Assembly (NCBI GenBank): GCA_963719515.1
Contig: CAVRCJ010000007.1
Location: 64,001-128,000, forward strand
DNA length: 64,000 nt
From: an uncultured cyanobacterium
GTDB taxonomy: Bacteria; Cyanobacteriota; Cyanobacteriia; CAKZMO01
Direction of reading: 5' to 3'
Shown here: positions 8,478 through 27,678 of the stretch, piece after piece
Layout: the number at the start of each line of letters is the position of its first letter
Position numbering within the stretch: position 1 is the first letter of the stretch
The notes under the pieces: model-generated
Databases searched by the model: none
The model's input: only the letters and a program-made list of their open reading frames with translations
What the model was told of the DNA's origin: nothing
Program-made: the position numbers and the translations under genes

Positions 8478-8779
8478 ATTAAAGAGCGCTGCCGACTGTT
8501 CAAGCTAGGCTGTAAATCCCAAACCTTCACCCACCAAGCCCTAGATGCCGCAGAACAGCACCCGGAGCTGATCTCCGCTTCTTCGACATCGAAGCCGCCC
8601 GCCGCGATATGGATCTGTTTGTCGCCCTCAACCTCGTTCTGCAGGCCGTCAGTGAACTCCAAACCCTCGTCAAAGATACCCAAACTTTAGCCGGTATCGA
8701 AGCCTACGCCGCCGCCCGCATGGCCTACTCAGCGGCAAAGACCATGGCCGCCAGCGCCCTGGCCCTTATTGTGCGGTAG
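8478..8779 (+). pseudogene. 5'-truncated, frameshifted remnant of a conserved cyanobacterial hypothetical gene
   Basis: Reads LFKLGCKSQTFTHQALDAAEQHPELISA, then after a frameshift near 8580 DIEAARRDMDLFVALNLVLQAVSELQTLVKDTQTLAGIEAYAAARMAYSAAK. No start codon. Confidence 0.6.
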
Positions 8780-8974
8780 CGCAACTCTCACGGCGCGAAC
8801 CGGGTCATCTCCACCCGAGCAGCAGTAAAGATTAGCCGTCCAGAGGCCGACCTATAGACCAATGCCCAATCCATCAGACCGTTAGTCTGTAGGTTGCATA
8901 TTATAGAAATAGGGCCAACAGTCTCCCCAAACAGACCCAAAGGCCCGCCGTGTTGTTTCATTAGAGGGCAGGTC

Positions 8975-9157
8975 ATGGAATCTTTCGATTCAGATACTGT
9001 ACAGTGGTCCGCTGAAGCGCAGCAGCGGCTCAAGCAAATTCCTTTTTTCGCGCGGCCTCAAGCGCGGCAGCAGGTAGAGCGCCGGGCCGCAGAGTGCGGC
9101 ATCGATCTCATCACGCCTGATGTATTAGAGCGGGTGCGGCGAGAGCTAGGGCAGTAG
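8975..9157 (+). CDS. PCP-reductase C-terminal-domain family small protein
   Basis: WSAEAQQRLKQIPFFARPQARQQVE...IT motif (PCP_red-like). Confidence 0.85.
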   Translation: MESFDSDTVQWSAEAQQRLKQIPFFARPQARQQVERRAAECGIDLITPDVLERVRRELGQ

Positions 9158-9161
9158 CGCG

Positions 9162-10391
9162 TCATCGGGGTACCGTGAGGCCCTGCGGCAGCGGAGCAGT
9201 ATCAGGAAGCTCTTTCCCTTGAATCAGCACCCCAAAGTTTCCCAAGCCCATGGGGTTGATTAGGGCATGGAGGGCATCTCGCCGCTGAATAATGTCGTTA
9301 ATGGAGCGATCGCCATTTTGCGACAGCTCATTGAGGCGATCGCCTAGCCCCAGCGCCATGAGGAACAGTCCCTGCTGCGTGAAGCCAACGGTGCTGAGGC
9401 CGCAGCGCTCTCCCGCCTGCTGCAGCGTCGTGAAGTCGACGTGGGCGGTGATGTCTTGGTGGCCGACGTTGCGGTAGGGGTCGGCATGATGGGCGTGGCG
9501 ATAGTAGCACTGCAGCGTGCCAGGCCGAGTTGGCTGGTAGTAGCGGGCAGCGGTGTGGCCGTAGTCTATGGTGAGCAGGTAGCCCGTTTTGAGGCGAGTT
9601 GAGACAGCGTGAAGCCAGTCTAGGGCCGCCAGGTTGACCTCCGTGGTGTAGCCGTCGGGGTAGTCCTCGAAGCTAATGCTGAGTTGCTCAAAATACTGCT
9701 GGAGAGCGGGGGTGGAGAGGTCGCCCGTCGTTTCAGTAAACTGTTCGGCGCTATCTGCGAGGGTCACGTAAACCTCCTGCAGCTCACCCGCCACTACTCT
9801 GACGCGGTGCACTGGAAAAGCGTCCACAAGCTCGTTAGAAAAGACGCAGCCTACAATAGAATTCTCTGGGATGTCGGACCAGCGGCACCACTGAAGACCA
9901 CTCCAGGAAGATTCATCCACCGCTGCCAGCGCCGCCGCGAGCCGCCGCTGCTGGTCTGCCGCAAGCCGGGGCGATCGCTCGATGACCCGGTAGGCGATCG
10001 CCGCGAAAAAAGAGGGGTGGTTTCGCTTGAGAGCCAGCAGAATATCAGCAGCAAGCAGACCCTGCCCTGCACCCTGCTCTACCAGCGTGAACGGTCGTGG
10101 TTTACCCAACGCGCCCCAAAGCTGAACAAACTGCTCCGCCAGCAGTTCACCAAAATCTGATCCAAAGCTGGAAGAAGTGACGTAGTCGCCCCGCTCACCG
10201 ACGGGAATGCGGCTGGTGTAGTAGCCCTGCTGAGGGTGATAAAGTGCCCACTCCATGTACTCGGCAAAGGAGATGCGGCGCTGGGGCTGCTGAAGAATAT
10301 GGTCTACGATCTGCCTGAGCAATGCCGGGTTGGCATTGTTTGACTCGATGGGGTTGCCTGGGGGGCGGTGAGGAGACTGGGAATATGCCAT
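9162..10391 (-). CDS. SAM-dependent methyltransferase, MidA/NDUFAF7 family
   Basis: ISFAEYMEWALYHPQQGYY, EQGAGQG, SNELVDAFPV, TIDYG, DITAHVDF. Confidence 0.92.
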   Translation of the reverse strand: MAYSQSPHRPPGNPIESNNANPALLRQIVDHILQQPQRRISFAEYMEWALYHPQQGYYTSRIPVGERGDYVTSSSFGSDFGELLAEQFVQLWGALGKPRPFTLVEQGAGQGLLAADILLALKRNHPSFFAAIAYRVIERSPRLAADQQRRLAAALAAVDESSWSGLQWCRWSDIPENSIVGCVFSNELVDAFPVHRVRVVAGELQEVYVTLADSAEQFTETTGDLSTPALQQYFEQLSISFEDYPDGYTTEVNLAALDWLHAVSTRLKTGYLLTIDYGHTAARYYQPTRPGTLQCYYRHAHHADPYRNVGHQDITAHVDFTTLQQAGERCGLSTVGFTQQGLFLMALGLGDRLNELSQNGDRSINDIIQRRDALHALINPMGLGNFGVLIQGKELPDTAPLPQGLTVPR

Positions 10392-10441
10392 AAAAAATAG
10401 GGCCAACGCTGGCCCCATTGTAAAACTTACGCACAGGCTGC

Positions 10442-10645
10442 CTACAGCGCGCTGCTGCCAAACGAAACGGGACGATTGACGCCGTTGGCGGAAAAGGCTA
10501 CAGCGAATTCAATGTTGGGATGCTGAGCCTGCAGAACGCTACGATAAGATTCGGCGTCGACAGGTCGCCTGAAGCGAGCCCATACTTGCTGAGATTCGGA
10601 CTGCTGCTGGACAACCCAAGGGTTTAGGCGCTCTTGATAACTCAT
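10442..10645 (-). CDS. Small conserved cyanobacterial hypothetical protein
   Basis: MSYQERLNPW...ARFRRPVDAESY...L pattern; GAGGT RBS upstream. Confidence 0.7.
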   Translation of the reverse strand: MSYQERLNPWVVQQQSESQQVWARFRRPVDAESYRSVLQAQHPNIEFAVAFSANGVNRPVSFGSSAL

Positions 10646-11255
10646 AGATTTAATACCTCACCGTCAGTAATTTTGACACGTAGCTGTGATACAACCTGTA
10701 TCTCAAGGGCTAGCGCTAGAAGAGCTAACGGCCTTGAACAGCGTCAGATTGATTGCATGGAGAGACAGGCCCGCGCACTCCAGGCGGAGCCTTCCGATGA
10801 TAAGAACTGCTTGTAGCGTAAGAGCTTGAACACCCTAGGATCGAAGCCTAATGACCCTCTCAAGGCACGAATAAACCCAAGCAACGATTAAGTTTTTGGT
10901 TCTGATGGGGAACCTGATTAAAAACTTTATGCGGCACGGTAAATAGGATTTACCCAAACATTAGGCAAATGTCTTGTGCCAACACCTGCATCTAGAGCAA
11001 TTATATCTGCTTAGACTCTGCATCTAGAGTTTTTTTGCCAAAAAGCTCAACTTGTATTAAAAGTACACACATAGAAGACCTGGTATGTAGCGTTTTTCCC
11101 GCCCAGGCTTGTTCGATTTTAGCAGGGGTGGAGTTTCCGTGAGCAGACGCTTTTGAGCGGAAAATCAATGCCGTGACTCTAGCGGCGATCGCCCCAGTCC
11201 TAAAGAATGACTCAACTGGCGGGGGCGATCGCTAAACATTAGGGGCGATGTCAAA

Positions 11256-13823
11256 ATGAGACAGAATAATCACCCCGACTGCCTAGTGTCTCGCCCCACC
11301 GTCCGCTCCCCCTGGGTTTATGCCGCTGCCCTCTCCCTTCTCTGGCTATTGAGCCTGGGGATAGACGGCCTGTGGCTGTGGCTAGACCATGCCGTGCCCT
11401 CCTGGGACCCCGCCGACCACCACATCGGGGCGCTCAACTACTGGTGGACGCTGCGGCAGATGCAGGGCACCCCCGAGTGGTGGCAGGGCTTTTGGACGCT
11501 GTCCTCCAAATACCCGCCGCTGCTGTATGTCTCCACCGCGCCGCTGATTGAGCTACTGGGGCGATCGCCCGACGCGGCGGTGCTCGTCAACGCTCTGTAC
11601 ACCCTGGTGTTGCTGGTGGCGGTGTTTCAGCTGGGTCGGCAGTTCTCCCCTGCGGTAGGCCTGTGGGCCGCTAGCCTAGCGCTGCTGCTGCCCCAGCTCT
11701 ATGTCACCCGCACCGAATACTATATGGACTACCCGCTGACGGCGCTGGTGGCCCTGAGCCTACTGGCGCTGACCCGGTGGCGCGACGCTAAATTTGGCGG
11801 GGCGCAGTGGGGCTGGGCGATCGCCTTTGGGGGCTGTCTGGGACTGGCGTTTTTGGCCAAGCAGACGGCGCTGCTGTTTTTGGCCGTGCCGGTGCTGTGG
11901 CTGGGGGCCTCTCGGCTATGGCGACGCCAGTGGGGGCGTTTAGGTCAGCTTGTTTTGAGCGGGGGCATTGCGCTATTGCTGATATGGCCTTGGGCGCGCA
12001 CCAACTGGTTTTTTCAGGTGAGCGCCGCCTTTAGCGCCAACATCCGCTCCGCCGCTATCGAGGGCGATCCGTCGGCTGCTAGCCTGGCCGGGTGGCTCTA
12101 CTACTGGCAGCAGCTCCCCCGGCTAGCGTCGTTTCCGCTACTGCTGCTGGCCGTGGCGGGTCTGGTGCTCGGGGTGGCGAGGCGGCGGGTAGCGCTTCGG
12201 GATCGCCAGGCCCTGGGGTGGCTGGGCCTGTTTCTGGGGGGCAGCTACGTCATTTGGTCGGCGATCGCCAATAAGGATGCCCGCTACATCATGCCGCTGC
12301 TGCCGGTGCTGGGGATTGTTCTAGCCTACGGGCTGACCCAGCTTCCCCGCTGGCTGCGCTGGGGGACGGTAGCGGTGGCGGCGGGGCTGATGCTGGTAAA
12401 TTTGTTTGGCGGCAGTGCGGCGCAGGGGGGGGTATCGCCTTTGACCCCAGGAGCCGCCCACAGCCCCTATCGGGGCGAACCCTATCCCCACGCTGAAGTG
12501 ATTGACGAGATCGTTCAGGCCCAGCCTCACCAGCTGGTAAACCTGGGAGTGCTGCCCTCCACTCCTGAAGTCAATCAGCACAACGTCACCTACTACGGTA
12601 ACCGAGACGACTTTCACGTCTATTCCCGCCGCGCCGGCAAGAGTAGGGGGCACCTAGAGCAGGACGTGGGCGCGTTTGACTGGTTCCTCAGCGTCACCAA
12701 GCCGCAGATCCACTACCACGATGCCAAATCTCGCCGCCGTCAGGCCGAGATGGTGAGGCTCCTGCGGCCTGGGTTCCGGCGGCAGCGAAACTGGACCCTG
12801 CCCGACGGCAGTCAGCTCAACCTATTCCGGCGGCGTCAGCTTCCTGTTGAAGTGCGCCCTTTGCCTGATGGCGACGCTGAGGCTGTGCAGCTGGCGGGGG
12901 TTGAGGTTGCCGGTCAGGCGATCGCAGGCGAGCCGGTGCCCATAACCTATCGGTGGCGAGGACCTTGGCGCGAGCTGCACGACGGCATCGTCATATTGAG
13001 CTGGGAGCAGGACGGGACGCTGGGCTGGCTGCACGACCACAGCATTGGCTTGGGGCGGCTCCATCCCCAGCCTATTCAGGCAAACCAGACGGTGCTCGCC
13101 CCCTCCAATGTCGATCCTGATGAGGCGTTCGAGGTGGTAGAGCATACGGCCATGCTGCCGCCCGATGGGTCTGCAGGGCGCTACCGACTGACCGCGACGT
13201 ACCTCAACCGCTCCACTGGAAAAACTTACAGCCTAGCGACGCCGCCCCAAACCCTAGAGATTGCCGCGCCCGTCGCTGCGGTCGGGCCTGCGGCTGACGC
13301 GGAAACTGAGCCCGAAACCGTCCCGTCTTTAGTTACGCCCCCCGACGCGGGAACTCAGCTGCGGCAGCTCGCCCAAGCCCTCCCCCTCGGCCCCGATGCC
13401 CTAGAGCCCGTCTTCGATCAGCTGGGTCGCCTCAGCCTCTATGACCCCATCCAGCAATATCTCCGGGACGCCGAAGTCAGCTTGTCCTATCGCCTCGCCA
13501 AAGCACCGGACGACCTCACGTTGCTCTATCCCCTGGTGCTAGCCCAGGTGCTGCAGCGGGATGCACCGGGGGCGATCGCCACTCTAAACCGAGTCACCCA
13601 GCTCGATGCCCAAAACCCCTACGCCTACGGCTATCTCGGCTTCGTGCAGCTCTACGCCCTGCGCCCTGCCGCTGCCGAGCGATCGCTGCGGTCTGCCGTG
13701 GCTTTAGCGCCAGAGTCGACCGAGCTGCGATCGCTCCACGCCGTCGCCTCCCTACTGCGGGGTAACCTTTGGGGGGCATGGCGGGAAGGCCGCGGGGTGA
13801 TAAACTCTCAAAACGTTGAGTAG
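11256..13823 (+). CDS. Membrane glycosyltransferase (GT-C/PMT_2-like) with C-terminal TPR-like repeats
   Basis: PSWDPADH, KYPPL, DYPL, NKDARYIMPLLP; many TM segments; TPR-like LDAQNPYAYGYLG. Confidence 0.85.
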   Translation: MRQNNHPDCLVSRPTVRSPWVYAAALSLLWLLSLGIDGLWLWLDHAVPSWDPADHHIGALNYWWTLRQMQGTPEWWQGFWTLSSKYPPLLYVSTAPLIELLGRSPDAAVLVNALYTLVLLVAVFQLGRQFSPAVGLWAASLALLLPQLYVTRTEYYMDYPLTALVALSLLALTRWRDAKFGGAQWGWAIAFGGCLGLAFLAKQTALLFLAVPVLWLGASRLWRRQWGRLGQLVLSGGIALLLIWPWARTNWFFQVSAAFSANIRSAAIEGDPSAASLAGWLYYWQQLPRLASFPLLLLAVAGLVLGVARRRVALRDRQALGWLGLFLGGSYVIWSAIANKDARYIMPLLPVLGIVLAYGLTQLPRWLRWGTVAVAAGLMLVNLFGGSAAQGGVSPLTPGAAHSPYRGEPYPHAEVIDEIVQAQPHQLVNLGVLPSTPEVNQHNVTYYGNRDDFHVYSRRAGKSRGHLEQDVGAFDWFLSVTKPQIHYHDAKSRRRQAEMVRLLRPGFRRQRNWTLPDGSQLNLFRRRQLPVEVRPLPDGDAEAVQLAGVEVAGQAIAGEPVPITYRWRGPWRELHDGIVILSWEQDGTLGWLHDHSIGLGRLHPQPIQANQTVLAPSNVDPDEAFEVVEHTAMLPPDGSAGRYRLTATYLNRSTGKTYSLATPPQTLEIAAPVAAVGPAADAETEPETVPSLVTPPDAGTQLRQLAQALPLGPDALEPVFDQLGRLSLYDPIQQYLRDAEVSLSYRLAKAPDDLTLLYPLVLAQVLQRDAPGAIATLNRVTQLDAQNPYAYGYLGFVQLYALRPAAAERSLRSAVALAPESTELRSLHAVASLLRGNLWGAWREGRGVINSQNVE

Positions 13824-16287: not shown

Positions 16288-17235
16288 ATAAGGGATATGC
16301 TGCTGAAGCTGAGCCTGCACTGCTTCAGCGATCGCCTGCCCGTCTTTCACGGAGCATTGCTCAGCCACCACCACATCCGCTTCCACATACAGCCGGTGCC
16401 CCAGCCACCGGGCCCGCACGCGGCCCAAAGACGCTACCCCGTCTACAGGGTCGGCGCTATGGCGGACGGTATCGATCACCTCAGGGTCTACGCCGTCGAG
16501 CAGGCGCGTGAAGATGGTCTGCCCCGATTCCCAAACAATTTTCAGCAACAGGACGGTAATCACCAGGCCAATGAGCGGGTCAAGCCAGGAGTAGCCCAGC
16601 CCAACTCCAACCGCGCTCACTAACACGGCTAAACTCACCAAGCCATCGGCTAAGGCATGCTGTCCATCGGCAATCAGGGCCGCGCTGTTGATTTCGCGTC
16701 CGACTTTCATGCGAAAGAGGGCGACAGTTTCGTTGCCGATGAAGCCAATGATGGCGGCGATGGCGAGCGCGCCTAGATGATAAATCGGCTGAGGGTGGTA
16801 AAAGCGATCGATGGATTCGTAGGCGGTGATGAGGGCGCTCAGCAAAATGATGGCCACCACGGCAACGCCCGCTAGGTCTTCAGCCCGGCCATAGCCATAG
16901 GCAAAGCGCTCTGTCGGCTTGCGTCGCCCCAAGAGGAATGCCACCCCGAGGGGGAGAGCGGTCATGGCGTCGCCGACGTTGTGAATTAAGTCGGCTAGGA
17001 GGGCTACGCTGCCCGACAGCCAGAAGACGATCGCCTGCGCCGTTGCCGTAATGATGAGGCCCACCAGTGACCATTTCACGGCCCAAAGCCCCCGTTCTGA
17101 GGTGGCGATCGCGGGGTCGATGGCTCCGTGGGTGTGGGCTTCATCGTGGTGGTGGTGGGTGTGAGCCTCATCACGATGAGGGTGGGTGTGATGGGCGGTA
17201 GATTGGGTGGGGGCGGGGGGCGTTGTGAGGGCCAT
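16255..17235 (-). CDS. Cation diffusion facilitator transporter
   Basis: His-rich N-terminus; SVALLADLIHNVGD, ALIADGQHALAD; C-terminal dimerisation domain. Confidence 0.92.
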   Translation of the reverse strand: MALTTPPAPTQSTAHHTHPHRDEAHTHHHHDEAHTHGAIDPAIATSERGLWAVKWSLVGLIITATAQAIVFWLSGSVALLADLIHNVGDAMTALPLGVAFLLGRRKPTERFAYGYGRAEDLAGVAVVAIILLSALITAYESIDRFYHPQPIYHLGALAIAAIIGFIGNETVALFRMKVGREINSAALIADGQHALADGLVSLAVLVSAVGVGLGYSWLDPLIGLVITVLLLKIVWESGQTIFTRLLDGVDPEVIDTVRHSADPVDGVASLGRVRARWLGHRLYVEADVVVAEQCSVKDGQAIAEAVQAQLQQHIPYLDQAAIRIVC

Positions 17236-17789
17236 GGGCGATAGGAAAGGGAATTTATGATTTGAGGGTAGAAGCAAATATAGCTTTACCCGGTGCGCCA
17301 TAAAAGCTCGTTACAGACTAAATGCTGCTGTGGTGATGGTTTTGGATGAAAGCGAGCCGTTGGATCTCTAGATTCGATTTGCTTGGGTGCTAGCGATTGC
17401 GCTGGGGATTTGAGGGGACGGCAAGAGCTGCACCTGAACTTGTCTGAGTGGTAGCGGATATCGTTGCCACTGGACACTCCGTCCGTCATCTCACTGCTGT
17501 GCTCTATGCTGTCGTTTCGACTCGCAGCTCTCAGAAAGGGTTCTGGGGCAGTAAGCCCCTTGTATCTCAAGTGGTAGATGCTCAAGTAGACAATCTAGAG
17601 TGGCTTTCAAGGTCTTATCATCAATCAAGGCTGGTGTAGGCGATACTGAAGAAGGGGATTGAAGCACGGCTAAAGTCCGATTTTAGGCAGCCTGACTCTA
17701 CCCCCTCTCCTCTCCTTTCTTAATCTCGCTCAGAGTGTTTTGTGGAGTACATGAGTATTATTCACGGCTCAAATTCTCGATAGCTCAGC

Positions 17790-18073
17790 GGCTAAGGCTT
17801 GATCCCAAGCAACATGATAACCAAAGGTTCCTCAAGCGCTTTCGTGCTATTGAGGTCAACTTGTTGTTCCTGGACGATGAGCCAGTGCCGACCACAAACA
17901 ATAGCAGCGAGCAGGCGCTGCGGTGGAGTGTGGTATTTCGCAAGGTAACCCACCGCTTTCGTTCAGATTGGGGCAGGGATTTATTTGCTCTAGTCTGTTC
18001 CATGATCAACACCGGAAAGCATAACGGTTTATCTGCCTTCGATGCCATATTCCACGCTCTTATCTCTCCTTAA
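17790..18073 (+). mobile_element. IS66-family transposase 3' remnant
   Basis: LFLDDEPVPTTNNSSEQALRWSVVFRKVT..FRSDWG...SMINTGKHNG; the N-terminal part is absent. Confidence 0.8.
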
Positions 18074-18180
18074 ATATTGATGTTATCTTTTTCCCTGCTC
18101 ACAGTGACGCTGATCATAGGAAATTAAGCTCTGGCAAGTATAATCTATCTACGCGGATTCACCTAAGCTCAGCGATTGCC

Positions 18181-19278
18181 ATGAAAAAGATTTTGTTTTT
18201 GGCTGCCAATCCTAGTGATACTGCGCATCTCCGGTTGGGTGAGGAGTTCAGAGATATTGAGAATGGTTTCCGTGGGGCGCGTCACCGAGATAATTTTGAA
18301 CTTGTTCACAAACCTGAAGTTCGTGTTAGGGATCTTCAGAAATCGCTGCTGAATGAGTCTCCACAGATTATTCATTTTTCCGGTCATGGGGAAGGAAAAG
18401 AGGGCTTAGTTTTTAAAGATGAGTCAGGTCAGACTAAACTCATTAGTACTGAAGCTTTAGCTGGGCTATTCAAGCTGTTTGCGAACAGCGTTGAATGTGT
18501 CTTGCTGAACGGGTGCTACTCTGAAGCTCAGGCAGAGAGTATCTTTGAGTATATCGATTGTGTGATTGGCATGAGACAAGCGATTAGAAATGGGGCTGCA
18601 ATTGAGTTTGCTGTTTCTTTCTACAATGCTTTGGGAGCGGGAAAGTCCTTTGAGTTTGCTTACCATTTAGCCTGTAATGCTATTCAACTAAGCGCCATAT
18701 CGCCAAGTCAAGAATCAAAGCGCAAATTGATATCGGATGACGCAGCAGATAAAGAATTTCCTGCTGCGTCATCCGGAGAGCATTTGATTCCTAAATTATT
18801 CATACGCACGGATCAAGCGCCAGCTAGCTCTGATGAAACGCCAATTCAAATATTTCTTTCCTCTGCAGAGGAAGACAAAAAATTACGAGAGAAGCTCAAA
18901 GGGCATCTAAAAGTGCTTCAACGTACGCGAAATATTGATGTTAAAGATAGAAGAGATGTTCGCTTTGGCGTCAATCTTAAAGACGAGATCAAACGACTAG
19001 TGGAAGCAGCAAATATTATTCTAATATTAGTCAGCGACAACTATATATTTTCAGACTTTTGCTTTGAATACGAGTTGCCGTTAGTGATGAGCCAGTCAAA
19101 GAATCAAGCCGCTGTTGTAATTCCCATTATTCTTGAGCCCGGAGATTGGGAAGAGTTGCCGTTTGAAGAATTAAGCCCCTTGCCTTCAAATCGCGTACCA
19201 GTCACACTATGGAACAATCAAAATGAAGCATTTAGAGAGATTGTTAAGGGAGTACGTGGAGCTACTATACTCTCTTAG
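18181..19278 (+). CDS. CHAT (caspase-like) protease - TIR fusion
   Basis: KILFLAANP, IIHFSGHG (catalytic His), VLLNGC (catalytic Cys). C-terminal TIR: IFLSS..ED...IILILVSDNY..SDFCFEYEL...VIPII. Confidence 0.88.
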   Translation: MKKILFLAANPSDTAHLRLGEEFRDIENGFRGARHRDNFELVHKPEVRVRDLQKSLLNESPQIIHFSGHGEGKEGLVFKDESGQTKLISTEALAGLFKLFANSVECVLLNGCYSEAQAESIFEYIDCVIGMRQAIRNGAAIEFAVSFYNALGAGKSFEFAYHLACNAIQLSAISPSQESKRKLISDDAADKEFPAASSGEHLIPKLFIRTDQAPASSDETPIQIFLSSAEEDKKLREKLKGHLKVLQRTRNIDVKDRRDVRFGVNLKDEIKRLVEAANIILILVSDNYIFSDFCFEYELPLVMSQSKNQAAVVIPIILEPGDWEELPFEELSPLPSNRVPVTLWNNQNEAFREIVKGVRGATILS

Positions 19279-19352
19279 AAAGCAAGTGTAATTCTCTTGT
19301 TAAGAACACCTAATATTAGCTTTAATGCATCTTACCAAAACCCTTAAGGAAA

Positions 19353-21590
19353 ATGAAAATCTTTATATCTTGCGATCAAACTATTCTCAGGGATAAGGAA
19401 ATTTGTGAGGAGTTAAGCACTAGACTTTCCTCAAAATGGTTTGTAGGCAAACTGAACCCTATAAAACTAACAGTTTGGCATGAGGGTATGGCGACGGGGT
19501 TCCTTGAAAAGGAAATTGAGCATAATATAGCAATATCAAATATTGCTATATTAATTATCAGTCCTAGATTTCTTGGAACTAAAAATAGCGAAATCATCAA
19601 ATTGGAAACACGTTCGACAAAAGATCGCTTGATATTAGTCCCCGTATTGTCCGAAAGCATAGAATCTTGGGGTGTTGCCGAAAATGATGCTGCTGCTGCC
19701 ATCTCAATTGATAAACTATCATATTTCCCTTCAGATAGAACTATTTCTATTGAGGATCAATGGTCTTCAGAAAATCGAAGCAAGACATTTAAACATATAA
19801 TGTCAGATCTCAAAAAATTCATAAAGGAAGAGCATGAGCTTTATTATAAAAGAAGTCAGTATAGAAGTCGACTAGACTTAGAGTCTGCAGATTATCCAAT
19901 TGACAACGAAGCTTTTGAGAAACATCGAAAAGCATTGGAATTAAAAATAGACGAAGTCGATGATATCGAAAATACTTTCCAGGAAGAGTATCTTTCCCTA
20001 AAAGAAAAGTATAACGAAGCTCTTAAATCGATAGATTTCAACGAGCTAAGCTATCGGGAATCAAAAGAAAAAATTGGCCTTGTGCGTGATGAATTTCAGC
20101 TGAAGAGAGATGGAAAGATAGCTTCTAGGGAAGAAGAAGCAATATTGTCTCAGAAAGCAGCTGAGCATGAGAAATCGTTTAAGGAGTATGCGCACTTATA
20201 CAAGCAGTCTCTTCAAGAAATAGACAGTTTGCTAGACGGCGTTGAGCCAGTTGGAAATAGGCTTGAGAGATTACGTAAAGAGAGAGAGAGATTAAGGCTT
20301 TGCGAAGAAGAGGTCAGGGAAAAAGAAAGGCATTTACAGAAGGAGCGAGAGCAGCAGCTTTATGTGCAGGGAAGGCGAGATTTTCTAAAAGAATATAGTG
20401 AGAAGATACCCCAAGAGTATCCTGATTTCAGACACACTTTTAGAAGATTGAGAAATAAACACGGTCTAAATAGACAAGAATGGAACGACGATCTCAAATC
20501 CGAGGTGGATAGAATTGTTAAACAGCATAAAAGCTACTTGAAAGAGTATGAAGAGGCCTTAAATGACGTTAAAGATCAAATCAACTCATCTAGGCTATCA
20601 ATTTTTGAAATTGACGAACGTCTCGATCAGGAACTAAGCAATCTCAGGCTAGTGCGGAATGATATAATCCAGGAATGCGAGAAAGGTGTAAGAGAGCTTC
20701 AGAGGCAAGGCAATGGAAGGAAATCAGAATACGAAGTAGAACTTCGTCGGCTTAACGAGAAGTCTTCCAGAACCAAATTGACTGCTGAAACCAGTAGCGA
20801 TTTGAAACAATTAGCTAAAAATCTCAAGCTTCATGATCGAGACGTGAAAGACTGCGAAACCAGGGTGAATCGCCCTTTACAAGCTTCTTTGCAGCCACTG
20901 TTGAGAAACAATCTAGATAGACTCAATAACAGTCGTACAAGAAAGCGCTTAAGTATTTTTGGCGTGATCTCTATTGGTCTGCTCGTTTTACTTTTTGCTG
21001 TAAGAGCTTTTAGAAAAGAAGAGGCGCCGACTGTCGCTCCGTCTGAAGAGATGCCTCCAATTTCAGATGAGTCTTTAATCATTGACAGAGAATCCGCAAT
21101 TACCATCGTTGAAAATTGGTACAAAGTCAAATCAGTTGTGTACAACATAAACAGAATCAACGAGCTTGATATAAATGATCCTATTAAATATTTAGAGGAA
21201 AGCAAAGTTGTAACTGGAAGATTCTTAGAAACAGCGGAGAAATATGTAAGAGGAGTTCGAGCAGAAGAACACAACTTCCCTTTGTATTCATTTAATATTG
21301 AACACTCCACAGATACTAACTTTCGCATCTGTCCGCCTCATCAAACTAACAGCAGCGTATATCGAGGACATTCTGGGAAGGCAGAAATTCACCTAGATGT
21401 GCGGCAAAACGATGACAACAGTTCAAGCTGGGCGTTTGGACTGCTCTACGATAACTTCAGTCAAGCATGGAAGATTGAGTATGCAGAGCGTGGTGCCAAT
21501 ACTAACAAAATCTTAACTGAATTCAGAAGAAATTTTTGGGGCATTGAAAATAAAGATGACCCTATTGATTGCCCTTCAAACCAAGCATGA
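19353..21590 (+). CDS. Divergent TIR - helical repeats - single TM - extracytoplasmic (ARC6/IMS-DUF4101-like) protein
   Basis: MKIFIS...VWH...AILIISPRFL...LVPVL (TIR strand pattern); charged helical middle region; TM IFGVISIGLLVLLFAV; AITIVENWYKVKS resembles the start of IMS domains (weak call). Confidence 0.7.
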   Translation: MKIFISCDQTILRDKEICEELSTRLSSKWFVGKLNPIKLTVWHEGMATGFLEKEIEHNIAISNIAILIISPRFLGTKNSEIIKLETRSTKDRLILVPVLSESIESWGVAENDAAAAISIDKLSYFPSDRTISIEDQWSSENRSKTFKHIMSDLKKFIKEEHELYYKRSQYRSRLDLESADYPIDNEAFEKHRKALELKIDEVDDIENTFQEEYLSLKEKYNEALKSIDFNELSYRESKEKIGLVRDEFQLKRDGKIASREEEAILSQKAAEHEKSFKEYAHLYKQSLQEIDSLLDGVEPVGNRLERLRKERERLRLCEEEVREKERHLQKEREQQLYVQGRRDFLKEYSEKIPQEYPDFRHTFRRLRNKHGLNRQEWNDDLKSEVDRIVKQHKSYLKEYEEALNDVKDQINSSRLSIFEIDERLDQELSNLRLVRNDIIQECEKGVRELQRQGNGRKSEYEVELRRLNEKSSRTKLTAETSSDLKQLAKNLKLHDRDVKDCETRVNRPLQASLQPLLRNNLDRLNNSRTRKRLSIFGVISIGLLVLLFAVRAFRKEEAPTVAPSEEMPPISDESLIIDRESAITIVENWYKVKSVVYNINRINELDINDPIKYLEESKVVTGRFLETAEKYVRGVRAEEHNFPLYSFNIEHSTDTNFRICPPHQTNSSVYRGHSGKAEIHLDVRQNDDNSSSWAFGLLYDNFSQAWKIEYAERGANTNKILTEFRRNFWGIENKDDPIDCPSNQA

Positions 21591-21896
21591 CAAGCATGAG
21601 GTATAGGTCATGAAACCTTAGCACCTGAGTGGTGCAGAGAACTCTTGAAAATTCCATTAATTAATTAATGGATTGTTGCAAAACTAGCGATTTCTGAGAT
21701 CGCGAGTAGATTGAGACCAAACTTTACATATTTACGTGGTTTGAAGGCACATATTTAGGACTTATCCGGCCTGAACTAAGAAGAAAATATCCTCTCCCCG
21801 GCTTTTTTATATCACTAATCTCTAGCACAGTCGGCTATTTAGAAATACATTGCTTAACCAACTCATTTCTTAACCTCCTAATCCTCAATATATGAT

Positions 21897-22271
21897 TTAC
21901 CAACGCACTAAAAACTTTCGCGTATTGCGGGTTGCCAAAGTTAAATTATTCGCCAAAGCGATCGCGGCAATTTTCAAATTGTATGAACCGATTGGAGTAC
22001 CTGAACTTGCTAACCCTGCTCGAATCTGACCCGCTAGCAGCGCCGCCTCATCCTCAAAGGGCAGCGAGATAAACCGTGTCAGAAACGCTTGCTGCCAATC
22101 CAGCGTACGGGCCGGGTTATTACTGCGAAATGACCCGTAAAACAACTCAGCCTTGACCACAGAACACACCGCCATGTCCTCAATCGGGGTAGACAGTAGG
22201 CGATCGCGCACCGATGGCGAACGACCATTCAAATACACCACACACACATTCGTATCCAGCAGATAGCGCAT
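21897..22271 (-). pseudogene. vapC: VapC/PIN toxin, degenerate
   Basis: MRYLLDTN, VKAELFYG, GTPIGSYNL (Asp to Asn). The C-terminal tail is frameshifted; VGKSYIED*EV continues in another frame. Confidence 0.75.
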
Positions 22272-22274
22272 TCC

Positions 22275-22484
22275 CTACTCAAACGCTCCCGCCAAGTCTT
22301 CGTCCAGCGCATCCGAAACTCCTGCTTCATCGACGTGAATCGGGTCGCCTGCGCAGATGCTATATAGATTTTCCAAAGGCTCCACAACTAGAGTAGCCGC
22401 TTGCACCGGCTGATAAATCACCATTACCTCTATCTCTCGGCCCGTCAGCCCTACCGGAATATCAAGATGCAGCAAGCAGCCCTG
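22275..22484 (-). pseudogene. Cognate antitoxin, apparently 5'-truncated
   Basis: LHLDIPVGLTGREIEVMVIYQP...; stops 3 nt before vapC; no convincing native start. Confidence 0.55.
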
Positions 22485-22759
22485 CCAAAAACTCACCCTT
22501 GCCTCTTCGCCGCAGATGCGATAGATTACCTTGCTAGAAGCTGTAATCCGATGCAGCTTGACGACAACCCCAAAAATTTGGTCAAGACGGGTACGATCGC
22601 CATCACCAGTGACGATCGCACCCTGACCCTTAGACAGGAAATCGAGCTGTCTTCGAGCTAGAGAGTATTGTATTTCAATACTTCTGGCCATCCTAGACGC
22701 CCAAGACAAGGGATGACCGATTTTTGGGTTTTCTTACCCACACAACTCAAAGAAAACCC

Positions 22760-23074
22760 ATGACATTTCTATATCCTGAGCTGCCCTCCCATGGCGAGGC
22801 AGCACTCAGCTTGCCGTCCACCGAGCAAGCACCAAACCTGCTGACCACCCCCGACCCCGGCCCCAGCGGTGAATATATCCGCCATATTCTCGTCGGCTCC
22901 CCCGAAGGCGTCCGCGAAACCATCTACCGGCTGCACCTGCGCCGCTACGTCGAGCAGGCCCAGTGGACCGGCCCCATCAAAATCGGCCCCAACGGCATCC
23001 ACATCACCCCCAGCCAAGGGCAGATCCTCTTCTACCTGATGCGGCTGCGATCTCTAGACATGCCTACCGGCTAG
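22760..23074 (+). CDS. Small conserved cyanobacterial hypothetical protein
   Basis: EYIRHILVGSPEGVRETIYRLHLRRYVE..QW pattern; GC3-rich codon use. Confidence 0.7.
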   Translation: MTFLYPELPSHGEAALSLPSTEQAPNLLTTPDPGPSGEYIRHILVGSPEGVRETIYRLHLRRYVEQAQWTGPIKIGPNGIHITPSQGQILFYLMRLRSLDMPTG

Positions 23075-23083
23075 CAGCACAGA

Positions 23084-23108
23084 GTAGGGTGGGCACTGCC
23101 CACCTTAC
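23084..23108 (+). repeat. REP-like palindromic unit
   Basis: GTAGGGTGGGCACTGCCCACCTTAC between convergent genes; same unit as 3953-3978. Confidence 0.65.
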
Positions 23109-23124
23109 CAACTGGTGTGTAGAT

Positions 23125-23961
23125 CTAACGCACCAGGCGAGGATAGAGCCGACCACACAGGGCCACCAGCCCCGCCGTCACCCCAACCAAAACGGCAAAA
23201 TCCACAGCTAGGCCATAGCTCCCCGCCTGGCCCACAAGCATCAAATCCCGCAGGGCATCCACAAGGTAGGTCAAAGGATTGATTCGCGATAAAACCTGCA
23301 GCCACGGCGGCATGATAGAAATCGGATAGATGGCATTGCTGGCAAAAAACAGCGGCATCATCATCAGCTGCCCCACCCCCATCACCCGCTCATTGGTCTT
23401 CACCCAGCAGGCCACCGTGAGCGAAAACGTCGAGAACAGGGCCGCCCCCAGCACCGCAGCGATCGCCACCCCCAGCAGCGCCAGTGGATTCCAGTCTAGG
23501 TTGACCCGCAGGCAGGCCGCCACAACGTAGATCACCAGCAGCTGAGACAAACAGCGCACCCCAGCGCCAATCGCCTTTCCCAGCACCAGGGCCGAACGCG
23601 GCGCTGGGCTGACCATCAGCTTATGCAAAATCCCCAGGTCCTTCTCCCAAATCACCAGCAGCCCGGTAAAAATCGACATGAACAGGATGCTCTGCGCCAA
23701 AATGCCCGGCGTCATAAAGTCGATGTAGCTCAGGTCCCCAGTGGGGATGCCGCGCACCTGGGTAAACACCTGGCCAAAAATCGTCAGCCACAGCACCGGC
23801 TGCACCGCGCGGGTAAATAGCTGAATCGGGTCGTGCCGCAGCTTGCGAATCTCCAGCTCTGCCGCCACCAGAGATTTTTGGGCAAACTCCCCCACCGTCA
23901 CCCCGCCGGGGTCCGGCTTACCCCAGGCGTTGGGCGGTGCGTCGGGTGCTTGATGTGTCAC
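23125..23961 (-). CDS. ABC-2 type exporter permease
   Basis: YIDFMTPGILAQ, PLFFASNAIYP, INPLTYLVDALR; GTG start after CAGGAG. Confidence 0.9.
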   Translation of the reverse strand: MTHQAPDAPPNAWGKPDPGGVTVGEFAQKSLVAAELEIRKLRHDPIQLFTRAVQPVLWLTIFGQVFTQVRGIPTGDLSYIDFMTPGILAQSILFMSIFTGLLVIWEKDLGILHKLMVSPAPRSALVLGKAIGAGVRCLSQLLVIYVVAACLRVNLDWNPLALLGVAIAAVLGAALFSTFSLTVACWVKTNERVMGVGQLMMMPLFFASNAIYPISIMPPWLQVLSRINPLTYLVDALRDLMLVGQAGSYGLAVDFAVLVGVTAGLVALCGRLYPRLVR

Positions 23962-24718
23962 GATAGGCTCCTGCTTCAGTGGTGAGGTAGTCTCCGGTGT
24001 AGTGGATGAAGACATCATCCATCGTGGCCGCAGGCGTCGGCAGGCCCGCTTTGAGGCTAGCGGGCGTCCCCGCTGCCACCTGCTGCCCGCCGTAGAGAAT
24101 AGAGAGGCGATCGCACAGGGCGTCGGCTTCATCCATAAAGTGGGTGGTCAAAAAGACGGTGGTGTTGTGGTCGCGCCGCAGCTGCAAAATCAGCTCCCAC
24201 ATGGCTTTGCGGGCCACGGGGTCTAGGCCCACTGTGGGCTCATCGAGGAAGAGCAGGGGCGGCTGGTGCAGGGTGGCCTGGGCAATTTCTAAGCGGCGAA
24301 TCATGCCGCCCGAGTAGGTCTTCACCAAACGGTGGCCTACCGGCTCTAGTCCCACGTAGTGAAGGGCGGCGCGAATCCGCTCTAGCCGCTGCCGCCGGGG
24401 CACGCCGTAGAGCTTGGCCAAAATCAGCATGTTCTCATAGCCCGTCAGCGTCCCGTCGACGGATAGCGCCTGGGGGACGTAGCCAATGCGGCGCTGCACC
24501 GCCATAGCCTGACGGGTGATGTCGTAGCCCGCCACCGTGGCCCGCCCAGCGCTGGCGGGCAGCAGGGTAATCAGCATTTTGATTAGCGTACTTTTGCCCG
24601 CCCCGTTGGGGCCCAGCAGCCCGAAAACCTCACCCGGCTCAACCGAGAGGCTGACGGCGTCGACGGCGGTTTTGTCGCCAAACTGTTTGGTGAGCTGGTG
24701 GAGAGCAATGATGGTCAT
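23918..24718 (-). CDS. ABC exporter ATP-binding protein (DrrA-like)
   Basis: GPNGAGKS, YSGGM, LFLDEPTVGLD, TTH. Confidence 0.93.
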   Translation of the reverse strand: MTIIALHQLTKQFGDKTAVDAVSLSVEPGEVFGLLGPNGAGKSTLIKMLITLLPASAGRATVAGYDITRQAMAVQRRIGYVPQALSVDGTLTGYENMLILAKLYGVPRRQRLERIRAALHYVGLEPVGHRLVKTYSGGMIRRLEIAQATLHQPPLLFLDEPTVGLDPVARKAMWELILQLRRDHNTTVFLTTHFMDEADALCDRLSILYGGQQVAAGTPASLKAGLPTPAATMDDVFIHYTGDYLTTEAGAYRDTSSTRRTAQRLG

Positions 24719-25035
24719 AGTCCTAATTTTACTGCTGCACGAGCGTAGGTCTCATTGTGATACTCCCCGCGTGAGCCGGATTCGCGCTTCCGCTAAAAGG
24801 AGCACTTCTTCTAGCGCAGGTGACTGTTCACGACCGACACAGTGCTCTTGCCTCCCCGCATCAAACAGGCCAAGTAATTACCATGGTTATTAAGTAGAAG
24901 GCCATAACTAAACGACGCTAACAGGGGGTTCGCCCCCCGCCGGGGGGCGAACCTCCAACACCGTTCATTTGTGGCTAGCCACTTAATACCCTCTGCCCTG
25001 TCCAGCAAATGCCCATTTAACAGACGCCCGAAAAT

Positions 25036-27678
25036 ATGCCGAACGTATCATCAGATGTTCTCTGGGACGTAGCCGTAGCCCAGTGCTGCCAGGAACCGGT
25101 TCACATCCTGGGCTACATTCAGCCGTTCGGAGGGCTGCTGGCAACGGATGAAAACTTAGAGCTAATCACCCACGGGTCCGCTAACCTAGCGGGTTTGTTG
25201 GGCCTTTCGGCCATCCAAGGGGATGGGGCCAGTCTCCTGGGGCAAGACCTACAGACGCTGCTGCCTGAGCAGCTCGTCCATGACCTACGCAATGCCTGCG
25301 GACTGCCTTGGATTCAAGCGCAGCGGGAGCGCGTCGGTACTTACGACATCCAGGGGCGAAGCTTTGACATCAGCGTTCATTTTAATGGGCATCGCATGCT
25401 GATTGAGTTAGAGCCGCTGCCCACCGTTCTAGAACATCCAGCGGCCCTAGCGGCCCGCATGAAGGCCCTGCTTCAAAACGTGAGCAATTCAGAGATGCTC
25501 ATAAGGGCCGTAACCGAGGAGCTGCGGAATGCGACGGGCTTCGATCGGGTCATGGCCTATCGGTTTTTACAGGATGGGTCTGGGGAGGTGGTGGCAGAAG
25601 CTCGCTCTACCGATATGGCGTCCTTACTGGGGTTACGGTTTCCCGCGACGGATATTCCGGAGCTGGCCCGGCTGCTTTTTCGTAAAACGTCGCTTCGGGT
25701 TATTCCCCATATTGATGCGGCCCCAGTCCCCCTTTTAGCCTGGAATCCTGAGGAAGATCCATTGGATCTTTCCTTGGCCCAGGTGCGCGGCGCTTCCACT
25801 GGCCATACCCAGCGGTACCTGAGCAATATGGGCGTTCAGGGCAGTATGACCCTGGCCATCATTGTCGAAGGGCAGCTATGGGGCCTGTTTGCGCTACACC
25901 ACAGCCAGCCGAAGCTGCTCTCCCCAGAGTTTCGGACGACGCTTGAGTTGTGCGGCACGTTGCTTTCCATGCATTTGCAGCAGACGATTACCGCAGAGCA
26001 CTTTTATGCCCGCAAGCAAGCGGCTACGGTCCTCGCTCAAACCTTTGCCCAGGCAGAACCTTCACCGACCACCAGCGATAAGCGAGAGCAAGTTCTGAAT
26101 CAAAGCTGGGAAATGCTCGTGGTTGAGGCTCAGCCGCAGCTGTGCAAGCTGCTCAACGCGGATGGTTTGGCCTTTGTGGTGGACCAAAAAGTTTTGGCAT
26201 CCCACGGCCAGGTCCCCCCAGAGCGCTCCATTTTAGCCCTTATTGACCATGGGCCGCTCAACGAGCAAGTCCAGTCTGAGACCGGCGTTGTGGCTGTGGG
26301 CAGCTTTGAAGCCCTCTCGGAATCGTCCCCAGAAGTGGCGATCGCTACGGACTGGGGCGACAGTGCGGGGGGCGGATTTTTCTCAGTGAAATACTACGAG
26401 AACCATTATTTTTCCTTTTTTAGAAACGAGCTGAGTTCTGAGGTGCGGTGGGCCGGCAACCCCCACCAGCAGGACGTCGTGCCAACGGACGATACTGAGT
26501 TTCCGTTTTCTCCCGAGCGATCGTTCGACATGTATAAAGAGATCGTTGGTGGGCAATGCCGCCCCTGGAGCCGTGATGATTTGGCCATTATTCTAGAGGT
26601 CAAGTCAGAGCTGCAAAATCAGGTCGGTTTGTTTCTGCAGCAGCAGCAAAACTTACTGATTGCGGAGTTGAAGCACCGGGTCAAAAATATTTTGGCTCTG
26701 ATCCGCTCAGTTGCTCGGCAGACCAGTCGATCTAAATTGTCTGTCGCCGAGTATACCGACGTTCTAGAGCAGCGCATTGCGGCGCTAGGGCTGGCCCACG
26801 ATTTGATTAGCCATACAGGGACAGAATGGCCCAGTCTTCGAGAAATTTTTGCGATTGAACTGCGCCCTTACTTGGCTAATGAGTCTGAACGCCATCAGCA
26901 GGCCCAGCTCCTCGGGCCGAATGTCAAACTGAGTAGCCTCTTTGTCCCGACCTTTGTTTTGGTTATCCATGAATTGGTCTCCAATGCGGTAAAGTATGGC
27001 GCTCTGTCAGTTCCGGAGGGTAGGGTTGAGGTAAGCTGGCACCCGGTGAACGGTGGAGCTAGCCTGCACTGGCGAGAGTCCAGCGGTCCTAGGGTACAGC
27101 CGCCTCAAGAGCGGGGCTTTGGCTGTGAACTCATCGAACGCGCAATTCCCTACGAGTTTGACGGGGAAGTGACGCTACGCTTCCCCGCTACGGGCGTTGA
27201 AGCAGATTTCTGGATACCCCAAGATTTACTGGAGTGGATCTCTCCGGCCCAAACGCCACGGCGGCAAGAGCCGGCGCGACAGCTTGCGCAGGCTGTTCCC
27301 CCCCCTGGAAGTAAGGGACGAGTGCTAATTGTTGAGGACAGCATGCTGATTGCGATCGAGCTGGAAAATACGCTAAAGGCGCTCGGCTTTGACCCAGTTG
27401 ACTCTGCCCCTAAAGTTTCCCGGGCGCTGAAGCTGCTAAACCGAGAGAGATACCGCGTCTGCTTGTTGGACATCGATCTCAAGCACGAAACCAGCTTTGC
27501 GCTTGCCTATAAACTTCAAAAAGAGCAAATTCCCTTTCTGTTTACAACAGGCTATGACTCCAAGTACTCTATTCCGGACGACCTAAGATCTGTAGTTCTC
27601 CTTAAGAAGCCCCTGAACCCCAAAAAACTGCAGTACAATCTCGATGAGTTGCTGCGAACCTCAGCTCAGATAATTTAA
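25036..27678 (+). CDS. Bacteriophytochrome PAS-GAF-PHY with HWE histidine kinase and receiver domain
   Basis: CCQEPVHILGYIQP, FDRVMAYRF, FPATDIP, WAGNP, ELKHRVKN, HELVSNAVKYGALS, WRESSGP, C-terminal REC (VEDS..LDI..KP). Confidence 0.92.
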   Translation: MPNVSSDVLWDVAVAQCCQEPVHILGYIQPFGGLLATDENLELITHGSANLAGLLGLSAIQGDGASLLGQDLQTLLPEQLVHDLRNACGLPWIQAQRERVGTYDIQGRSFDISVHFNGHRMLIELEPLPTVLEHPAALAARMKALLQNVSNSEMLIRAVTEELRNATGFDRVMAYRFLQDGSGEVVAEARSTDMASLLGLRFPATDIPELARLLFRKTSLRVIPHIDAAPVPLLAWNPEEDPLDLSLAQVRGASTGHTQRYLSNMGVQGSMTLAIIVEGQLWGLFALHHSQPKLLSPEFRTTLELCGTLLSMHLQQTITAEHFYARKQAATVLAQTFAQAEPSPTTSDKREQVLNQSWEMLVVEAQPQLCKLLNADGLAFVVDQKVLASHGQVPPERSILALIDHGPLNEQVQSETGVVAVGSFEALSESSPEVAIATDWGDSAGGGFFSVKYYENHYFSFFRNELSSEVRWAGNPHQQDVVPTDDTEFPFSPERSFDMYKEIVGGQCRPWSRDDLAIILEVKSELQNQVGLFLQQQQNLLIAELKHRVKNILALIRSVARQTSRSKLSVAEYTDVLEQRIAALGLAHDLISHTGTEWPSLREIFAIELRPYLANESERHQQAQLLGPNVKLSSLFVPTFVLVIHELVSNAVKYGALSVPEGRVEVSWHPVNGGASLHWRESSGPRVQPPQERGFGCELIERAIPYEFDGEVTLRFPATGVEADFWIPQDLLEWISPAQTPRRQEPARQLAQAVPPPGSKGRVLIVEDSMLIAIELENTLKALGFDPVDSAPKVSRALKLLNRERYRVCLLDIDLKHETSFALAYKLQKEQIPFLFTTGYDSKYSIPDDLRSVVLLKKPLNPKKLQYNLDELLRTSAQII

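Follow-up and report, generated by a model that had tools for sequence, protein, structure and literature searches.

A low-GC island with two adjacent genes

The DNA analyzed here (the window) is a stretch of 64,000 nucleotides of contig CAVRCJ010000007.1 from an uncultured cyanobacterium, and our subject is a pair of adjacent genes within it, a candidate system in which a membrane protein and a caspase-like protease each carry a TIR domain. Gene 1 (18181-19278, + strand) encodes a protein of 365 amino acids (aa) that joins a small CHAT-type protease module to a TIR domain, and gene 2 (19353-21590, + strand) encodes a 745-aa protein in which a divergent N-terminal TIR domain is followed by a helical stalk, one predicted transmembrane (TM) helix and a domain predicted to lie outside the cytoplasm. 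Both open reading frames (ORFs) are intact and lie in the same orientation with a gap of 74 bp, exactly as an initial annotation made from the sequence alone had placed them.

The pair differs sharply in composition from its surroundings. Its GC content, taken in 500-nt windows, is 0.34 to 0.43 against about 0.6 in the flanks, and GC at third codon positions (GC3) is 0.366 in gene 1 and 0.354 in gene 2, compared with 0.68 to 0.77 in the neighboring genes. The highly iterated palindrome 1 octamer (HIP1; GCGATCGC) occurs 77 times in the window and not once between 17105 and 21958, the longest HIP1-free gap of the window, where about 5.8 sites would be expected (Poisson P ~0.003). The low-GC, HIP1-free tract as a whole spans 17106-21957, with a GC content of 0.34 to 0.49. 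GC, GC3 and the HIP1 gap all agree with the AT-rich, HIP1-free island first proposed and support its foreign character. The second-longest HIP1-free stretch (4946-9306, 4360 bp) has a mildly lowered GC content of 0.48 to 0.59.

No direct or inverted flanking repeats marking the island ends were found, and Rfam identified no family at E <= 0.1 in 16500-25500. When 20 relatives were searched at the DNA level, gene 2 was unmatched and gene 1 was weakly matched in its CHAT part only, by paralogous sequence; matches to the flanks were fragmentary, so that the empty site could not be reconstructed. The spacer between the two genes (19279-19352, + strand) contains a purine-rich AAGGA at 19346-19350, and no terminator-like hairpin is predicted in it on the + strand. 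With intact ORFs, a short gap and no such site, the pair looks expressible as a unit; a promoter scan was uninformative, with 4 promoter-like sites compared with 8.8 on average in shuffled sequence.

Gene 1 encodes a mini-CHAT-TIR protein

The protease module of gene 1 comprises residues 1-171 (18181-18693, + strand) and the TIR domain residues 224-361 (18850-19263, + strand). Pfam CHAT matches residues 40-160 with 31.7 bits (cut-off 24), and since this match is confined to the C-terminal half of the model, we call the module mini-CHAT; Pfam TIR_2 matches residues 224-354 with 44.8 bits (cut-off 28, E 2.2e-11). In PADLOC the protein matches the generic 'chat' model (E 1.6e-19) and, over residues 223-361, the ThsB1 model (E 2.8e-28), and thus carries a TIR domain of the ThsB type found in Thoeris. 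The conserved catalytic residues are all present: His69 in HFSGHG (codon 18385-18387), Cys112 in LNGCYS (codon 18514-18516) and Glu298 of the TIR domain in SDFCFEYEL (codon 19072-19074). Across an alignment of 28 family members, His69 and Cys112 are invariant and the Glu298 column is at least 90% conserved; in another alignment, the column has glutamate in all nine CHAT-TIR proteins. The first description of gene 1, a CHAT protease with intact His and Cys and a C-terminal TIR domain keeping its Glu, is therefore upheld by model scores, motifs and column conservation alike.

The closest solved relative of the mini-CHAT module is the protease part of SAVED-CHAT from type III-B CRISPR (PDB 8tl0). 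Residues 5-170 of gene 1 align with residues 289-460 of 8tl0_A (E 3.1e-11), placing the His and Cys on HFIGHG and LNACC. SAVED-CHAT is activated when its SAVED domain binds cyclic oligoadenylate, whereas gene 1 has a TIR domain in the place of SAVED, and no ligand-binding domain of the SAVED, SLOG or Macro type was recognized in it by Pfam or PADLOC.

The gene 1 family is large, with 3577 proteins at E <= 0.001 among 8000 scored candidates. Most of the 120 matches listed are cyanobacterial proteins of about 360 aa with both CHAT and TIR, and many 'TIR domain-containing proteins' of this size are 41-50% identical to gene 1 over 98-99% of the length. Of 401 sampled genomes of the class to which the window belongs, 163 have a match to the family profile at E <= 1e-60, mostly over the CHAT half only; among the matches listed, 20 in 18 genomes span both CHAT and TIR. 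A single-protein scan of genome contigs with gene 1 returned 88 pattern matches and no relative.

The genome that contains the window also encodes a paralogue of gene 1 in DNA of native GC content (contig 10, 847009-849020 onward; L198), 372 aa long and 45% identical. After 8 bp it is followed by a 294-aa nSTAND1/AAA_16 fragment of a STAND-type nucleoside triphosphatase (NTPase), and further on by a stretch of lower GC content that contains a PIN (VapC-like) gene, and then by a 601-aa nSTAND1 protein. The arrangement looks like a STAND partner gene that was split by insertion of a toxin-antitoxin module.

Gene 2 encodes a membrane protein with a divergent TIR domain

Gene 2 is an orphan by sequence. 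A word-index search returned only the protein itself, and an exhaustive phmmer search of 1.84 billion representatives added one remote protein, the tandem TIR-TIR protein P0122, which matches residues 38-155 (E 9.3e-6). Neither a phmmer comparison with the 2080 ORFs of the first 80 CHAT loci nor a PDB sequence search with the N-terminus (E <= 10) found anything. By profile, remote match and predicted fold, the N-terminus (residues 1-159; 19353-19829, + strand) nonetheless reads as a divergent TIR domain, as had been proposed. Pfam TIR_2 scores 15.4 bits here (cut-off 28, E 0.026), alignment of residues 2-159 with the gene 1 family TIR by hhalign gives a probability of 71% (E 3.7e-5), and a TIR profile derived from CHAT-TIR proteins gives E 0.0028, making this domain far more divergent than the partner TIR domains at other loci described below. 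An AlphaFold2 (AF2) model from a 15-row TIR alignment has a mean predicted local distance difference test (pLDDT) score of 82.4 and a predicted template modeling (pTM) score of 0.81. All eight Foldseek matches of this model in the PDB at E <= 0.001 are TIR domains, as are nearly all further matches listed. The model may be biased toward the TIR fold by the alignment on which it was built; support independent of AF2 comes from the P0122 match and hhalign. Assignment of the catalytic Glu depends on the alignment, with MAFFT placing Glu80 in the column and hhalign Leu84.

The stalk (residues 160-532; 19830-20948, + strand) is charged, rich in E, L, R and K, and coiled-coil-like, with a heptad contrast of 0.42 against a mean of 0.24 and a maximum of 0.30 in 100 shuffles; it has weak SMC-type matches only. 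A repeat that the initial annotation had reported in gene 2 lacks statistical support, the best off-diagonal self-alignment reaching E 0.25. The single TM helix (residues 533-553; 20949-21011, + strand; Kyte-Doolittle peak 2.48) has the basic stretch RTRKR on its N-terminal side, and the positive-inside rule therefore predicts the last ~190 residues outside and the TIR domain and stalk inside. Heptad periodicity, helix and RTRKR together bear out the helical stalk, one TM helix and extracytoplasmic domain that had been described.

The outside domain (residues 574-730; 21072-21542, + strand) is tentatively identified as ARC6-IMS-like, with an NTF2-like fold, through one intermediate, the 585-aa protein P0123 from a related locus (see below). 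BLASTP of gene 2 residues 537-730 against P0123 gives E 6e-5 with a common C-terminal FR..FWG motif; without the TM helix the match scores 28.9 bits, a value reached by none of 500 shuffles, and the corresponding region of P0123 is Pfam ARC6-like_IMS (E 5.3e-9). Direct comparison of the outside domain with 28 cyanobacterial IMS domains by hhalign is collinear, with a score of 24.8 (P 0.0017, probability 15%) that exceeds those of all 60 shuffles. On its own, the region of residues 571-745 has no Pfam family at E <= 10, the ESM Atlas gives a lead to DUF3828 with a score of 0.89 (under the 0.9 mark), and a single-sequence AF2 model of the C-terminal domain is unusable (pLDDT 34.7). The IMS domain of ARC6/Ftn2 (PF13355) likewise lies outside the membrane after a single TM helix. 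It differs in that gene 2 alone misses the Pfam model, a search of the own genome with PF13355 matching only the Ftn2-like gene, and in that the rest of gene 2 is unrelated to the division protein.

The pairing of CHAT-TIR with a TIR membrane protein recurs

Mapping CHAT-TIR loci pooled from genome contigs, metagenome contigs and the 401-genome sample, with near-identical copies removed, we obtained 31 unique two-domain loci (330-470 aa), 29 of which have at least 600 bp downstream and could be assessed. The next co-oriented gene starts with a TIR domain in four of these: the window and the loci L004, L010 and L216/L229. Gene 2 of the window is TIR-stalk-TM-IMS-like; L004 has a TIR-CHASE2 protein (588 aa) followed by a DUF928 gene; L010 has a TIR-TM-TPR protein (423 aa); and L216/L229, in genome G383, has P0123, which consists of a TIR domain, a helical region with ~61-residue repeats (E 2e-8), one TM helix and a Pfam ARC6-like IMS domain. 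In all four downstream proteins a membrane helix follows the TIR domain, with more K/R on the TIR side. The parts of P0123 stand in the same order as those of gene 2, and the CHAT-TIR protein of L229 shares 39% identity with gene 1 (E 9e-86), so this locus is a remote homologue of the whole pair, in both genes. The pairing is thus seen outside the window in one remotely homologous pair and in two loci of analogous architecture, and this recurrence supports the original idea that the two genes are a unit. At the other 25 loci the downstream genes differ and mostly encode STAND NTPases that carry WD40 or TPR repeats, or EAD9-iSTAND/VMAP proteins of vWA-MoxR systems.

The TIR domains of the partners in L004, L010 and L216 match the profile derived from CHAT-TIR proteins with E 2.3e-55, 4.8e-39 and 1.8e-49, respectively, and belong to the effector TIR subfamily. 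The catalytic Glu of the sensor TIR domains is present in P0123 and, by MAFFT only, in gene 2, is replaced by Asp in L004 and is missing in L010. Two simple accounts of these domains were rejected: sensor TIR domains are not all catalytically dead, two of the four keeping the Glu (gene 2 by MAFFT only), and partner TIR domains are not recent mutual duplicates, partners being no closer to each other than to non-partners.

A word-index search with the C-terminal region of P0123 also returned only itself, and since P0123 is an orphan too, sensors of the gene 2 type evidently diverge very fast. Such diversification is usual for conflict systems and bears on a possible housekeeping or developmental role of the same architecture, in which the IMS-like domain would report envelope or division state and the protease would process specific targets. 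That role would suit an outside domain resembling the IMS of the division protein ARC6/Ftn2 and a neighborhood free of defense genes, and it has a model in the proposal, in the available passages of Kaur et al. 2021 (PMC8195603), that C-terminal sensing activates a caspase autopeptidase and thereby regulates transcription through an ECF sigma factor. The pair, however, is foreign DNA beside an insertion sequence (IS) remnant, did not turn up in the search of 20 relatives, and has no sigma factor or DUF1822 gene among its flanking ORFs by Pfam and NCBIfam; together with the fast evolution of two orphan sensors, these features make a housekeeping role quite improbable in our view.

Coupling modules on the CHAT head

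The mini-CHAT head is also found fused to AAA_35 NTPases, GUN4, FGE-sulfatase (FGS), SIR2, STAND-WD40, TPR, Roc-COR and CHASE2. L014 encodes a direct mini-CHAT-CHASE2 fusion followed by DUF928, with a head 46% identical to residues 1-239 of gene 1, and L004 has the order CHAT-TIR, TIR-CHASE2, DUF928. Because the split form in L004 mirrors the fused form in L014, the two TIR domains take the position that a covalent link occupies in the fusion. The 80 CHAT proteins scanned included no fusion of CHAT to IMS.

In the 'EAD principle', as set out in the available passages of Kaur et al. (PMC7159879, PMC8195603), effectors are brought to sensors by adaptor domains that occur in pairs and make homotypic contacts. 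A TIR domain on both genes fits this principle, since the same domain is found on the effector gene and on the adjacent sensor gene in 4/29 loci. Other CHAT-TIR proteins carry a separate pairing module: CHAT-TIR-EAD9 adjoins EAD9-VMAP in L009, and CHAT-TIR-AAA_35 adjoins AAA_35 proteins in L033 and L051, the partner in L033 having predicted TM segments. The CHAT-TIR-AAA_35 pairs of L025, L026, L033, L054 and L077 resemble the window pair in combining a CHAT-TIR head with a membrane-anchored sensor encoded by the next gene; they differ in that coupling there is via related AAA_35 NTPases, whereas the window pair has the TIR domain alone and no NTPase.

Some loci show further arrangements. About 3 kb downstream of the CHAT-TIR gene of L008, an EAD1-TIR gene (10203-11051) adjoins an EAD1-CHASE2 gene (11180-12877), by its domains a clear case in which a paired adaptor connects a TIR effector with a CHASE2 membrane sensor. 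The CHAT-TIR gene of L088 (1530-2657) is followed by a gene for a 541-aa protein (2760-4385) that starts with the same mini-CHAT head, and that of L087 by a gene for a 747-aa protein (2918-5161) with full-length CHAT; these second CHAT proteins suggest possible protease cascades.

A membrane sensor that may recruit the protease through TIR-TIR contact

The reading we favor, with a probability of roughly 45%, is that the sensor recruits and activates the protease by TIR-TIR contact. The two genes would have been acquired horizontally as one sensor-effector unit. Gene 2 would be the single-pass sensor, its IMS-like domain in the periplasm and its stalk and N-terminal TIR domain in the cytoplasm, and gene 1 the soluble effector, a small caspase-like protease joined to a TIR domain with probable NAD-cleaving (NADase) activity. 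An envelope cue would alter the oligomeric state of the sensor, and the clustered sensor TIR domains would then recruit gene 1. Proximity would turn on the protease and possibly also the NAD-cleaving site of the TIR domain, with cell suicide, dormancy or regulated proteolysis as the outcome.

TIR domains are NAD-cleaving enzymes in bacteria and plants and mainly protein-protein adaptors in animals. An animal-like form of the proposed coupling, in which the TIR domains would serve as adaptors, the receptor TIR nucleating a hetero-oligomer with the TIR-caspase and the protease being activated by induced proximity, seems to us somewhat unlikely. The TIR domain of gene 1 is likely also an enzyme, since it keeps the Glu, the partner TIR domains are not specifically similar and most CHAT-TIR proteins have no TIR partner. 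Complex prediction for the two TIR domains scored 0.00 in both runs, a result that says nothing for or against binding.

Several observations weigh against recruitment by TIR-TIR contact. Conservation of the Glu in 9/9 CHAT-TIR proteins and 2/4 sensor TIR domains argues for enzymatic TIR domains. Identities between partner TIR domains (22, 41, 52 and 38% at the four loci) are within or below the range to non-partners; for the window, the TIR domain of gene 2 is 22% identical to that of gene 1 and 20-27% identical to other TIR domains. No TIR partner is present in 25/29 assessable loci, and these include the native-GC paralogue followed by a STAND NTPase, so the TIR domain of this family needs no TIR partner. 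Where the protein has a separate pairing module (EAD9, AAA_35), its TIR domain is presumably an effector. The reading of gene 2 also has weak points, the protein being an orphan and its outside domain having been identified via a single intermediate. Finally, the initial annotation looked to defense-island context, and none is recognizable: the 11 flanking ORFs include no defense genes, a PADLOC scan of them giving no defense model beyond generic ABC-ATPase matches.

Gene 1 is moreover an outlier in its own family. At 34 columns with at least 92% conservation it carries a residue other than that of the family, compared with 0 to 12 such columns in the other 27 members. Many of these changes are conservative or AT-biased, and the pattern could reflect relaxed selection. 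Taken with the lack of close relatives of gene 2 and the strongly different composition of an island beside an IS66 remnant, it might indicate chance adjacency in a decaying mosaic, with one or both genes non-functional in this host. We regard the absence of a functional unit as very improbable: two long ORFs have stayed open despite the many stop codons to be expected in AT-rich DNA, the His, Cys and Glu are kept, and the pairing is found at three further loci, including one where both genes are homologous.

The main rival to coupling by contact, and a serious one, is nucleotide signaling of the Thoeris kind, in which one or both TIR domains would turn NAD+ into a signal or deplete it, the CHAT protease would respond to that signal or act in parallel, and stable TIR-TIR contact would not be the transmitting step. 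A TIR product is known to activate a caspase-like protease, N7-cyclic adenosine diphosphate ribose (N7-cADPR) doing so in type IV Thoeris according to the available parts of its description (10.1101/2024.10.24.620036), and the TIR domain of gene 1 is of the ThsB1 type, with a catalytic Glu shared by the nine CHAT-TIR proteins, P0123 and, by MAFFT, gene 2. Against this, gene 1 has no recognizable SAVED, SLOG or Macro domain beside its 171-aa CHAT module and TIR domain, and no Thoeris effector with a signal-binding part (SIR2-SLOG, Macro-TM or a separate caspase-like protease) and no ThsA-type effector was detected in the 11 flanking ORFs by PADLOC, or nearby by Pfam or NCBIfam. Moreover, half of the four sensor TIR domains are without the Glu, the contrast between split L004 and fused L014 points to physical coupling, and the main text of a systematic TIR survey contains neither 'CHAT' nor 'fused' (bioRxiv 10.64898/2025.12.03.692087). 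On balance, we judge nucleotide signaling unlikely to be the transmitting step.

Were the adaptor form of TIR-TIR coupling true, it would be the first prokaryotic adaptor-type TIR-TIR signaling from the cell surface to a caspase-family protease, with CHAT-TIR plus TIR-CHASE2 against CHAT-CHASE2 as a built-in control. An adaptor role of a bacterial TIR domain would bear on how Toll-like signaling arose. The pair and its three counterparts form a small, cloneable test case, for which the natural fused version offers a comparison. Some bacterial caspase-type effectors would possibly be triggered from outside the cytoplasm, whereas most characterized defense sensors act inside it, and the poorly understood IMS-like domain would gain a possible sensory role.

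Relation to known systems

In the animal Toll-like receptor axis, a sensor outside the cell is joined through one membrane helix to a TIR domain in the cytoplasm, and a second TIR protein links this receptor to a caspase-family protease. The same parts are found here, with an outside sensor-like domain, one TM helix and a predicted cytoplasmic TIR domain in gene 2 and a second TIR protein linked to a caspase-family protease in gene 1. In contrast to Toll-like receptors, gene 2 has no leucine-rich repeat ectodomain, its TIR domain is N-terminal with the N-terminus predicted inside (an inverted topology), a stalk of ~370 residues separates the TIR domain from the membrane, and the protease is fused to the adaptor TIR domain. 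We take the resemblance as functional only, and it does not imply common descent of the pathways.

Among bacterial systems, the nearest are the caspase and EAD systems of Kaur et al. (PMC7159879, PMC8195603). In the passages available, these share with the window pair a small caspase-like head with variable sensor parts (CHASE2-TM, STAND NTPases, GUN4, FGS), the presence of the same small domain on effector and sensor genes with proposed homotypic coupling, and enrichment in filamentous cyanobacteria. They differ in the role of the TIR domain, which there is an enzyme or effector and here is itself the paired domain; the domains that those passages of the 2021 paper (PMC8195603) name as fused C-terminally to the caspase module do not include TIR. 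The EACC2-caspase systems of the same paper have, in the available passages, a constant N-terminal EACC2 joined to a caspase module, and caspase-CHASE2 fusions are described, an architecture to which L014 corresponds. Unlike those systems, the window pair has no adjacent TRADD-N, ECF sigma or DUF1822 gene among its flanking ORFs.

Type IV Thoeris, as far as its description is available (10.1101/2024.10.24.620036), also unites a TIR domain with a caspase-family protease in a single immune module. There they are separate proteins and N7-cADPR diffuses between them, whereas here TIR and protease are fused, the second TIR domain is on a membrane protein, and no signal-binding domain is recognizable. 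TIR-to-caspase signaling as such is thus already known, and the pair is less of a novelty than first supposed. PADLOC names no system for the pair, in keeping with the initial annotation, which had not recognized it as a named one: gene 2 is unmatched and gene 1 matches only the ThsB-type TIR and generic 'chat' models. The version of PADLOC used, 2.0.0, predates type IV Thoeris.

In the literature searched, the term 'CHAT-TIR' does not occur, and only Kaur et al. 2021 (PMC8195603) has both 'TIR domain' and 'CHASE2', the available passages giving caspase-CHASE2 and not TIR-CHASE2. Nor was a TIR domain shared by a membrane sensor and a TIR-caspase effector described there; the supplementary tables of Kaur et al. 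lay outside the search and may list such proteins. The claim of novelty therefore holds in part. The exact pair is unnamed, and the combination of a TIR domain on a membrane sensor with a TIR-caspase effector seems to be a variant not yet described; the shared-adaptor principle and the joining of a mini-CHAT head to variable partners are already in the available passages of Kaur et al. 2020 and 2021, and the class as a whole is known and has been catalogued computationally.

Flanking genes and other features of the window

To the left of the pair lies the C-terminal remnant of an IS66-family transposase, a 112-aa ORF (17735-18073, + strand) that matches Pfam DDE_Tnp_IS66 (E 4.6e-6) and positions 288-384 of the 387 positions of NCBIfam transpos_IS66 (E 6.4e-17), in agreement with the IS66 remnant annotated there. 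On the right, a VapC (PIN) toxin gene (21897-22271, - strand; Pfam PIN E 2.7e-11) has an intermediate GC content of 0.507. It had been taken as part of a decayed vapBC operon, a description that does not fit the toxin gene, a full-length ORF covering positions 1-118 of the 130-position NCBIfam VapC model with a score under the cut-off. A 144-aa ORF (22275-22709, - strand) ends 4 bp upstream of VapC, at the position expected of the antitoxin. It matches no family in Pfam or NCBIfam, and the VapB partner is therefore either unrecognizable or replaced.

Two repeated sequences lie farther to the right. The repeat of ~95 bp at 24892-24986 has dozens of copies with 75-91% identity in relatives of the genus and family and no Rfam family at E <= 0.1; because both strands often match at the same place, it is probably palindromic or similar to a miniature inverted-repeat transposable element. 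The other, ~530 bp of native GC content at 22533-23060, recurs about a dozen times elsewhere in the own genome and in relatives of the genus with 70-83% identity, and is by these copies a multi-copy gene family or element. Within it, an ORF at 22724-23074 (+ strand) encodes a 116-aa protein with no match in Pfam, NCBIfam or PADLOC, which resembles clusters of cyanobacterial hypothetical proteins in the ESM Atlas with a score of 0.91.

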